NCBI GenBank assembly: GCA_963818965.1
Contig: CAWFUG010000001.1
Span: 1 to 64,000, forward strand
DNA length: 64,000 nucleotides
Source of the DNA: an uncultured Verrucomicrobiae bacterium
GTDB taxonomy: Bacteria; Chlamydiota; Chlamydiia; Chlamydiales; Rhabdochlamydiaceae
Direction: 5' to 3'
The notes below the pieces were generated by a model. That model saw only the letters and a program-made list of their open reading frames with translations, ran no database searches and was not told the DNA's origin. Shown one piece after another: positions 6,628-7,421 of this stretch; the first letter of the stretch is position 1, and the number at the start of each line of letters is the position of its first letter. Both the position numbers and the translations under genes were made by a program.

Positions 6628-6662
6628 TGTTTAAACACCGTGCCCTATGGATATTTTGCCTG

Positions 6663-6835
6663 ATCCATGTAGCCTTTCCCTAGCATTATTGGGTTGCCGG
6701 CGTCGGCAACCCAATAATGCACCTTAAGGATTTTGGTAGCCCCATCCCCGAGGTTGATCTCTTTGCCGGCGCCGGCAAAGAGATGGCTCGGGTCATTTTC
6801 AGCCTCACTTGCTACTGGATTGCCGATGCTGGTAC
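6663..6835 (-). repeat. In-frame array of 2-3 diverged palindromic copies of the dinD internal segment
   Basis: Palindromes at 6757-6784 and 6683-6720, plus a weak unit centred at 6827. They translate colinearly with dinD codons at 7122-7202. Confidence 0.8.
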
Positions 6836-7421
6836 GGATTTTTGAGGCAATAATCCAGCATCTTTATCATCTAGAAGTAACTTGGGCTTAGCTTTTTTTA
6901 AACGTTTTTCCACCTTCTTGATATGCTCCGCCGGAGAGGGCTTTAAAATCTTGGGAAGCTTGCTTGCGTAACTCCAGGCGTTCTAGGTCTGCGATAACAG
7001 CATCCGATAATTCTTGTCGCCGGGTCTGGATTGCAAAATACTTCTGGGCATGGGCAATTTCGGGCTTTCTGGAGTCTCCATTTTGAGCGATAAGATAACA
7101 GGCAAAACGCGAAAGGTGATAATCCTCAACGATTTGAAAAGATCCTTTGCCTCCAGGGATCGGTTTACCGGCGCCGGTAAAGTGATGGCTTGGATCATTT
7201 CCTGACTGTTTGCACGACTCGATGGCTTTTTCCACTGCATTTTCAAAACGTTGCCACTTGGAATATCCCAAAAGGGCTTGCAGTTCTCTTGCGCTCCAAT
7301 ACTCAATCCCGTGCTGATTGAGCTTTCTTAAATCTTCGAATGACAGTTTGCTGGGAACTAGGCCGTTATCAGAAGCATCATTTTCCATAGGTGCATCTCT
7401 AAAAAATTCATGAAGTGCCAT
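6812..7421 (-). pseudogene. dinD: DinD-like (Bro-N-like N-terminus) protein with an apparent internal deletion and frameshift
   Basis: WSAREL, LSRFACYLIAQNGDSRKPEIA and AQKYFAIQTRRQEL motifs. The ORF stops at 6888. A DinD-like C-terminus (PAEHIKKVEKRLKKAKPKLLLDDKDAG) continues in another frame to TAG at 6812. Confidence 0.75.

Follow-up and report, generated by a model that had tools for sequence, protein, structure and literature searches.

A hairpin inside the dinD coding sequence and its variant copies beside a broken dinD gene of an environmental chlamydia

A broken dinD gene followed by two palindromic fragments

The stretch of DNA analysed here (the window) comprises the first 64,000 nucleotides of contig CAWFUG010000001.1 (GenBank assembly GCA_963818965.1), from an uncultured member of the Rhabdochlamydiaceae, and our subject is a gene of the DinD family that it carries, together with two short palindromic fragments, cassettes 1 and 2, that lie beyond the gene on the same strand (Table 1). 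The open reading frame (ORF) of the gene matches the NCBIfam model NF008573 with 200 bits, below the cut-off of 242, over profile positions 11-163 of 288; the orthologs in related genomes are 290-324 amino acids long, so that the window gene has the Bro-N domain of the family but not a full-length intact ORF. The protein matches the PADLOC candidate PDC-S13 (intact orthologs at E 6e-108) and the N-terminal part of a Type I specificity-subunit model. When aligned with the ortholog of a related genome (locus L009, genome G005), the gene shows a 320-nt internal deletion whose joint lies near position 6936, at a short imperfect direct repeat; no read-derived contig spans the joint. Because this deletion shifts the frame, the window dinD is, as judged from the alignment, a pseudogene. 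Its ancestral C-terminus survives as a frame-shifted remnant that runs to the ancestral stop codon (6812-6814), and the cassettes begin about 12 nt beyond that codon. The initial annotation of this locus had put the array past the 3' end of the gene, which holds with respect to the ancestral stop; the end of the ORF at 6888-7421 is only a premature one, due to the deletion.

The palindromes described in the initial annotation are all present, as are its peptide readings in one stop-free frame of 72 codons: a perfect 18-bp palindrome within the dinD frame, a perfect 28-bp palindrome in cassette 1 (6757-6784) and a near-perfect 38-bp palindrome in cassette 2 (6683-6720), the last made of 17-nt perfectly complementary arms and four central bases. 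The centres of the two cassettes are 69 bp apart and the arm changes are compensating, again as had been reported. Past its 18-bp palindrome the in-gene hairpin has a 2-base mismatch, after which outer pairing resumes, and in cassette 1 the palindrome is preceded by about 15 nt of 5' flank (NDPSH) and followed by about 25-45 nt of decayed 3' flank. A covariance model of the hairpin (R1), trained on 90 dinD genes and with E values for the 64-kb window, recovers both cassettes as true relatives of the gene segment. The third, weaker unit near 6827 that had been listed with them is not supported: it has no match to the model, does not fold (z -0.5) and sits in the frame-shifted C-terminal remnant of dinD; its 80% complementarity over 20 nt to one arm of cassette 2 was not counted as evidence. 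Folding as single-stranded DNA, compared with shuffled sequences, gave -12.6 kcal/mol (z -4.6) for cassette 1 and -21.5 kcal/mol (z -9.4) for cassette 2, and only -5.1 kcal/mol (z -1.0) for the in-gene copy.

The window cassettes are evidently old: beyond the stem their flanks reach about 50% identity to the closest of the 91 dinD genes, and the longest run of identical bases shared with the window gene measures 10 nt for cassette 1 and 7 nt for cassette 2. An assembly artefact can be set aside for cassette 1, since read-sized contigs from two independent metagenome runs show zero differences over 6747-6897 and 6763-6913. In these sparse data (the best DNA run contains 0.21 of the sampled words, and the contigs are read-sized) neither joints nor swapped cassette forms were seen at the array; a relative's contig in one metagenome run carries a paired change in the gene, 7167 A>G with 7178 T>C. 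A genome-wide palindromic repeat, of the repetitive extragenic palindrome (REP), miniature inverted-repeat transposable element (MITE) or Rickettsia palindromic element (RPE)-like kind, was rejected as the identity of the array, as 6640-6900 matches only itself in the 2.24-Mb assembly.

Table 1. Features of the dinD locus in the window
Feature	Position	Strand	Remarks
In-gene hairpin site	7159..7186	.	Encodes H-H-F-T-G followed by A-G-K-P-I; perfect 18-bp palindrome 7164-7181; covariance model 59.4 bits
Cassette 1, dinD-type hairpin fragment	6720..6800	-	Covariance model 42.7 bits, E 1.9e-10
Cassette 2, relic of NPI-type dinD segment	6663..6731	-	Covariance model 25.7 bits, E 3e-5
Weaker unit of the initial annotation, not supported as a cassette	6813..6832	-	No model match, no fold
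dinD-family pseudogene, N-terminal part, 177-codon ORF	6888..7421	-	Pfam Bro-N PF02498, E 1.5e-9, residues 33-128
Joint of 320-nt internal deletion (~107 codons, frame-shifting)	6930..6940	-	Global DNA alignment with ortholog L009
Frame-shifted remnant of ancestral dinD C-terminus	6812..6937	-	Reads ..AEHIKKVEKRLKKAKPKLLLDDKDAGLLPQKS.. then stop; 90-93% identical to ortholog residues 259-289
tRNA-Pro (GGG)	5778..5854	+	About 0.8 kb beyond the array; context for insertion/turnover site

A hairpin within the coding sequence of the DinD family

The family set comprised 91 distinct dinD sequences: besides that of the window, they stem from 25 loci of related genomes and from 80 loci spread over many phyla, these being the best 80 of 599 confirmed relatives; close homologs, with 65-75% identity, are present across phyla. 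The hairpin is a 14-bp stem at codons D-H-F-x-x followed by x-x-K-M-V, with its centre 57 nt upstream of the codons for L-S-R-F/Y-A-C-Y, and model R1 recovers such a stem in the window gene and in cassettes 1 and 2. At the hairpin centre 12.1 of 15 pairs are complementary, compared with 3.8 (standard deviation 1.7) at the 73,196 remaining centres of these genes, and it is the unique best centre in 78 of the 91 genes, which bears out the earlier proposal that the segment would be palindromic in homologs too. Among the genes that score low, two owe this to a shift of register and one, L056, to true degeneracy. Truncated genes do not differ from the others in stem pairing (11.6 vs 11.9 of 14 pairs, n = 10 and 81). 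In a 90-row alignment 88.3% of cells are paired as against 73.3% in shuffles (reached by 0/500), with 204 double-sided changes as against 60 +/- 13 and with 28-48% paired in slid controls, figures that overstate the number of separate events, the family sequences not being independent. The partner of the first base of an I/V codon at pair 13 is a synonymous third codon position, and there 40 of the 91 genes have TA, 44 have CG, 2 have another Watson-Crick pair and 5 are unpaired; the central 12 bp of the stem vary freely. As read from the aligned genes, the stem arms covary even at the cost of amino-acid change, and the palindrome is a hallmark of the DinD family, kept at the DNA level.

E. 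coli dinD (L155, locus ~640-670) has a 30-bp quasi-palindrome at the same codons, here D-H-F-E-E followed by I-L-D-M-V, with 13/15 pairs, which is the best centre in the gene and folds at -12.2 kcal/mol (z -5.2). Our literature searches yielded no description of a coding hairpin in the DinD family, E. coli DinD and DdrC included, and Rfam 15 no family, its sole match being a 15.6-bit chance hit to a miRNA model (E 5.6). An RNA-specific constraint on the stem was rejected: in pairs 3-15, G.T was found 26 times and A.C 63 times (23 of the latter from one clade at pair 11), and a purely RNA-level constraint is argued against because G.T is not favoured over A.C.

Rewritten and lengthened arms

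Cassette 2 is homologous to relics that follow stop codons in two related genomes of other genera (G014 and G023) and to an NPI-type gene segment of G005 and G023. These relics and genes have the right arm and the 3' flank in common, and in the relics the left arm (H-H-F-A/T-G codons in the genes) is partly or wholly the reverse complement of the right one, a change that in cassette 2 yields the 38-bp palindrome. Of 24 possible pairs the relics form 18 (cassette 2), 19 (G014) and 11 (G023) and the genes 12, and between genera the relics differ in a compensating manner. Lengthening is seen more widely: the stem continues for at least two pairs past pair 14 in 6/20 non-genic copies and in 5/91 genes (Mann-Whitney p 0.009), an extension that lies outside the paired positions of the search model; two model hits in unrelated ORFs (L152 and L130) had been dropped as probable false positives before the 20 non-genic copies were counted. 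Arm conversion, compensating multi-base changes and extension, by which template switching at quasi-palindromes is recognised, are thus all found here as pattern, and to judge from this pattern only, cassette 2 and its homologs carry the footprint of such switching.

Hairpin-centred copies outside dinD genes

In the source genome (2.24-Mb assembly, 88% complete) the covariance model finds seven sites in total. The four beyond the array are an intact paralog, a fragment of about 120 nt of dinD on contig 2, which adjoins a tRNA-like stretch (read by eye), and two copies that consist of the hairpin only, between unrelated flanks, one of which forms a perfect palindrome of 30 bp. The hairpin-only copy at L111 (G000:C11:72273-72302), a perfect 30-bp palindrome, reads N-H-F-G-D-V-T-K-M-V, is followed by G-T6 and abuts a far longer inverted repeat. 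Among related genomes the model has hits in 17/41, many of them outside any dinD gene and some in tandem: G003 has a pair of cassettes of unlike type at a distance of 67 bp, and G020 a pair at 39 bp; a tblastn search around these hairpin copies found no other dinD debris. Across the wider family, flanking non-genic copies scoring at least 25 bits occur at 5/99 loci, in metagenome-assembled genomes (MAGs) of Burkholderiales, Chlamydiota, Tenericutes and Bacteroidetes and in a Caballeronia isolate (L100), whose cassette lies 14 nt past the stop codon and is nearly identical to the gene's own stem; three weak copies lie upstream of a Chloroflexia gene (L056). The expectation that flanking variant cassettes would recur elsewhere was therefore borne out, in other genera and in other phyla. 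Most of the flanking copies elsewhere are the hairpin alone, without the variable module described below, and in the window, L028, L089 and L083 they differ from the gene's own hairpin. In three whole genomes (8.2, 6.2 and 1.1 Mb) the model finds 3, 3 and 2 sites, one of which lies in every case no more than about 250 nt from the gene, and with so few sites per whole genome this adjacency is not due to chance.

Partial genes were seen as well. In an uncultured Bacilli MAG (L079) a same-strand tandem array of 4.1 kb interleaves three full-length dinD paralogs with three N-terminal fragments of 55-83 amino acids and includes a 1215-bp repeated unit. At L026 (G023:C1, ~2113.5-2115.5 kb) two tandem partial dinD fragments run into a CRISPR array with a 28-nt repeat, the first of them starting at the hairpin and the second cut at K-A-L-S-G-A, near the deletion site of the window gene.

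Such material could be ordinary pseudogene debris, in which the palindromes are by-products of a peptide motif, and many dinD fragments do come from other parts of the gene: when the full-length protein was used as query, 6/19 partial matches (E <= 0.1) lacked the 11 hairpin residues. The other 13/19 span them, a proportion that is only suggestive, as the search favours the conserved N-domain. Since covariation with the opposite arm extends to synonymous positions, pairing is retained and lengthened in non-coding relics, and hairpin-only copies with unrelated flanks adjoin genes in several phyla, we disfavour this explanation as highly improbable.

Another explanation is that the hairpin is a functional cis-acting DNA or RNA element whose flanking copies are working sites, resembling 3'-end or terminator elements or operators, and kept by selection. 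Their positions fit: some flanking copies lie 4-36 nt past stop codons (G023, G014, L100 and L028) and others just upstream of a start codon (L089, L083 and the three in L056), the adjacency in the three whole genomes is non-random, and the relic arms are conserved between genera. The genus of L100 adds a further case. Part of the query has matches in 53/61 genomes of that genus, and dinD is present in 10, inserted between two conserved convergent genes that are elsewhere adjacent to each other; five of the dinD-bearing loci have a dinD-type hairpin past the stop codon, at three an ordinary GC-rich hairpin takes its place, and the empty sites have such a GC-rich hairpin too. In one species that lacks dinD at this site (L176, G088:C327, ~6490-6525) a solo dinD-type hairpin lies directly past the stop codon of the conserved gene, in the slot that relatives fill with the GC-rich hairpin between the convergent genes, so that the dinD-type hairpin persists there in the absence of dinD. 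Set against this, an intrinsic terminator was rejected at the window array, with no terminator-like site on either strand of 6645-6815 and no T-run after the hairpins, the freely varying central 12 bp make a sequence-specific protein site unlikely, and flanking copies are unlike the gene's own hairpin at the four loci named above. A cis-acting element is, on balance, rather unlikely.

Surroundings of the locus and the question of a mobile cassette

Between the array and the tRNA-Pro gene of the window lies a LysE-family transporter gene (5877-6494) that G005 lacks: in that genome a tRNA-like stretch (recognised by eye) stands directly 3' of dinD. By this comparison the dinD locus is a variable spot. 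The five ORFs within 4683-8655 that were scanned against Pfam gave uracil-DNA glycosylase (UDG), LysE, racemase, tRNA-editing and Bro-N matches. A separate hairpin that is not dinD-like, with 17-nt arms 94% complementary and a 13-nt loop, occupies 6581-6627 between the array and the start of the LysE gene. Elsewhere in the window there are intergenic inverted repeats of 68-120 bp, which form two families of two copies each (3113-3180 with 36373-36446, and 34704-34782 with 60511-60594) and a single 120-bp hairpin (37915-38034).

A further explanation is that dinD is a mobile single-gene cassette and the hairpin its attC-like site of site-specific recombination, with flanking and solo copies as junctions or landing sites that insertion and excision left behind. 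In 10/61 genomes of the L100 genus dinD behaves as an inserted single-gene unit between convergent genes, it stands near a tRNA gene in the window and near a tRNA-like stretch in L009, a solo hairpin marks the otherwise empty site L176, and the 65-75% identical homologs across phyla and the PDC-S13 and Type I specificity-subunit matches are of the same tenor. The principal hairpin, however, is in the middle of the ORF and not at a cassette boundary, no upstream partner hairpin was seen at the L100 insertion, and no recombinase adjoins the array. An integron was rejected, with no integrase above cut-off in the 88% complete genome (TIGR02249 at best 81.7 bits as against 265) and only generic tyrosine recombinases present. 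Nor do the hairpins look like an attC site or a cluster of attC sites lacking integron-integrases (CALIN), the stems being perfect and unbulged and neither R/L boxes nor extrahelical bases being seen when compared by eye with the box consensus. An inversion switch between the in-gene and the flanking hairpins was rejected: the N- and C-parts of one gene were never on opposite strands in 134 loci, no inverted or permuted gene arrangement was found among them, and L047 turned out to hold two complete divergent dinD genes. A recombination site of this kind is, to our mind, a very doubtful explanation.

A mosaic wing tip in the predicted protein

The AlphaFold model of an ortholog (mean predicted local distance difference test, pLDDT, 83) resembles Deinococcus DdrC (structures 7qvb, 7udi and 8u0g; Foldseek E 9e-5, probability 1.0, template modelling score 0.30-0.46), for which a sequence search of the PDB had given its best match at only E 0.44. 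In the predicted fold there is a beta-hairpin wing with strands 71-77, for which the stem codes, and 89-93, and between them a module of variable sequence forms a tip of low confidence. The segment is more variable than the rest of the N-domain, as had been proposed: the central four codons and the next 14 residues have 2.5 and 2.1 bits, compared with 1.6 elsewhere. The module comes in discrete types, for example x-I-x-x-G-K-G-x-x-Q and K-M-V-x-L-G-S-x-x-x-R-E, which are interspersed on an IQ-TREE tree of the remaining protein, several sister pairs being supported. Forcing the 12 GKGxxQ genes, a group defined only after the tree had been inspected, into one clade costs 290 log-likelihood units (lnL; p of the approximately unbiased test, p-AU, 0.0002), the module state changes 9 times among 35 rows, and pairs with the same module on distant backgrounds are 83-87% identical in the module and 50-70% upstream of it. 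As these trees and alignments read, the evolution of the family has seen repeated swaps, from one discrete type to another, of the wing tip of about 15 residues encoded past the hairpin.

In the L100 gene three bases of the stem are unlike those of all relatives and the same as in the flanking copy that it has in common with its sister L157, whose gene keeps the ancestral state at the three positions. It is suggestive that the L100 stem took the state of the flanking cassette by exchange, a case that is statistically weak, with three sites of which two are one pair.

These observations are those on which the hypothesis of the initial annotation can be judged, namely that the array is a silent reservoir from which gene conversion started at the hairpin swaps the wing-tip segment and its palindrome, as at pilE/pilS or hsdS. 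At the level of the family it is supported in part, by the variability, the recurring cassettes, module types scattered on the tree and decoupled from their background, the position of the module at the tip of the predicted wing, the L100 stem, and the Bacilli tandem array of full genes and N-terminal fragments. At this locus it is not supported. The gene is no longer functional, and with flanks about 50% identical and shared runs of 10 and 7 nt the cassettes have diverged too far to exchange by homology; they do not have the long flanks in common with the gene that pilS-like or hsdS-like cassettes have. Most flanking copies elsewhere, being hairpin-only, could not therefore donate the module, and other donors are at hand in incoming DNA or in full-length paralogs, of which there are 2-5 per genome. 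The module group is post hoc, and of the prediction that cassette sequence would appear inside the gene in sister strains or minority reads there remain the one suggestive match between L100 and L157 and, in the sparse reads, no swapped form. A diversity-generating retroelement was rejected too: no reverse transcriptase occurs among the five Pfam-scanned neighbouring ORFs (no genome-wide search for one was made), and the differences are of all kinds and not adenine-specific. For the array of the window a silent reservoir is quite unlikely.

A broader version would make the coding hairpin the initiation or anchor site of a hairpin-driven cassette exchange, in which flanking copies and partial genes act as partners and the wing is re-tipped by short-patch conversion, the window being a decayed example. 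We consider this version unlikely, and if it were true such exchange would be a means of diversifying a defence-type, putative DNA-binding protein without a dedicated recombinase or reverse transcriptase.

Origin of the array

Placing all these results together, the reading that we prefer, and to which we give about an even chance, is that the array is a fossil, debris left as dinD copies turned over at a hairpin with a tendency to template switching. According to this scenario the dinD of this environmental chlamydia, a Bro-N/DdrC-like candidate defence gene, has been killed by the 320-nt deletion, and the two short fragments past its ancestral stop codon are what is left of other dinD-type copies, in each case around the family hairpin. 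The patterns in the sequences suggest that the palindrome may fold during replication or repair and provoke template switching; a switch inside the hairpin would copy one arm from the other, and the arms would in this way stay complementary through paired changes. Where no protein constraint operates, switching would go on to perfect and lengthen the palindrome, as may have happened in cassette 1 (28 bp) and cassette 2 (38 bp). From one copy to another, template switches or short-patch conversion would in turn move patches centred on the hairpin, and such movement could produce both the mosaic wing-tip module within genes and the hairpin-centred fragments beside them. In the window itself nothing is being swapped any longer.

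Several results weigh against this reading. A pure drive leaves the close adjacency of flanking copies to the gene unexplained. Hairpins have decayed in some pseudogenes (L021 and L025), the arm sequence of the relics is about 90% conserved between genera, and the persistence of hairpins in non-genic copies is partly a matter of ascertainment, as the search model rewards pairing and decayed hairpins are under-counted. Adjacency, the solo copy of L176 in a terminator slot and the conserved relic arms together suggest selection on the hairpin itself, and because of these three observations drive alone is not the whole story.

Significance and comparison with known systems

A 14-bp stem inside a coding sequence, found from chlamydiae to E. 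coli, offers a rare clean case of nucleic-acid pairing that overrides or co-determines protein evolution, and it belongs to a poorly understood SOS and defence-island family (DinD, DdrC-like, PADLOC candidate PDC-S13). Judging by the flanking copies and the mosaic wing tip, the hairpin seems to influence the diversification and turnover of dinD genes. Because E. coli K-12 dinD carries the hairpin, it can be tested directly whether the hairpin acts in regulation, serves as a recombination site or is a mutational structure that perpetuates itself. For annotation, short intergenic palindromes reading ..HF....KMV.. would be marks of former dinD sites.

E. coli DinD is SOS-induced and a reported modulator of RecA; it is of the same family and has its quasi-palindrome at the same codons, and the modelled ortholog matches Deinococcus DdrC. 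Silent-cassette conversion as in Neisseria pilE/pilS, with its G4 initiator, and in phase-variable Type I hsdS uses long conserved flanks and full variable segments. The DinD system resembles these in having partial variant copies by the gene, a structure-forming motif at the exchange point and a mosaic variable segment, and differs in that the copies in the window are diverged and lie by a dead gene, the copies are mostly hairpin-only and neither a recombinase nor an inverted-repeat switch was found. An attC site lies at the 3' boundary of its cassette, carries R/L boxes as well as extrahelical bases and depends on IntI, and CALINs are integrase-less clusters of such sites. Hairpin palindromes conserved more in structure than in sequence, small arrays and mobile single-gene units are common to these and to DinD; unlike attC, the principal DinD copy is in the middle of an ORF, no IntI was found and no boxes were seen.

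Quasipalindrome hotspots of E. coli have reportedly served in the study of template-switch mutation. Template switching at quasi-palindromes is established, as is its capacity for both fixing and creating stems (Monttinen and Loytynoja 2022, PMC8794818), and so far as the sections consulted of that work describe the process, the arms of cassette 2 and its homologs are like its products, with one arm perfected from the other, multi-base compensation in one step and stems made or lengthened. Quasi-palindrome studies, by the same partial account, concern RNA genes and reporter hotspots, unlike the DinD stem, which is inside a coding sequence, is kept across phyla and has copies that accumulate beside the gene. 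The baculovirus bro genes, which carry the Bro-N domain as DinD does, are, in the part of the source used here, multi-copy and often truncated, and are reported to be DNA-binding and associated with regions of rearrangement, in genomes rich in 30-bp imperfect palindromes of the hr type (PMC2830988). Unlike the DinD hairpin, these hr palindromes are separate intergenic elements, and that part of the source describes no palindrome inside a bro coding sequence. In organelle genomes, perfect inverted repeats occur within functional protein-coding genes, both arms encoding conserved residues (2019, PMC6649704), and in the portion of that paper drawn on here they represent the same kind of compromise between protein and DNA structure. 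Those palindromes are given there as many, up to 284 bp long and lineage-specific, whereas the DinD hairpin is one short site of 28-30 bp at one codon position in one bacterial family, with extra copies outside the gene.

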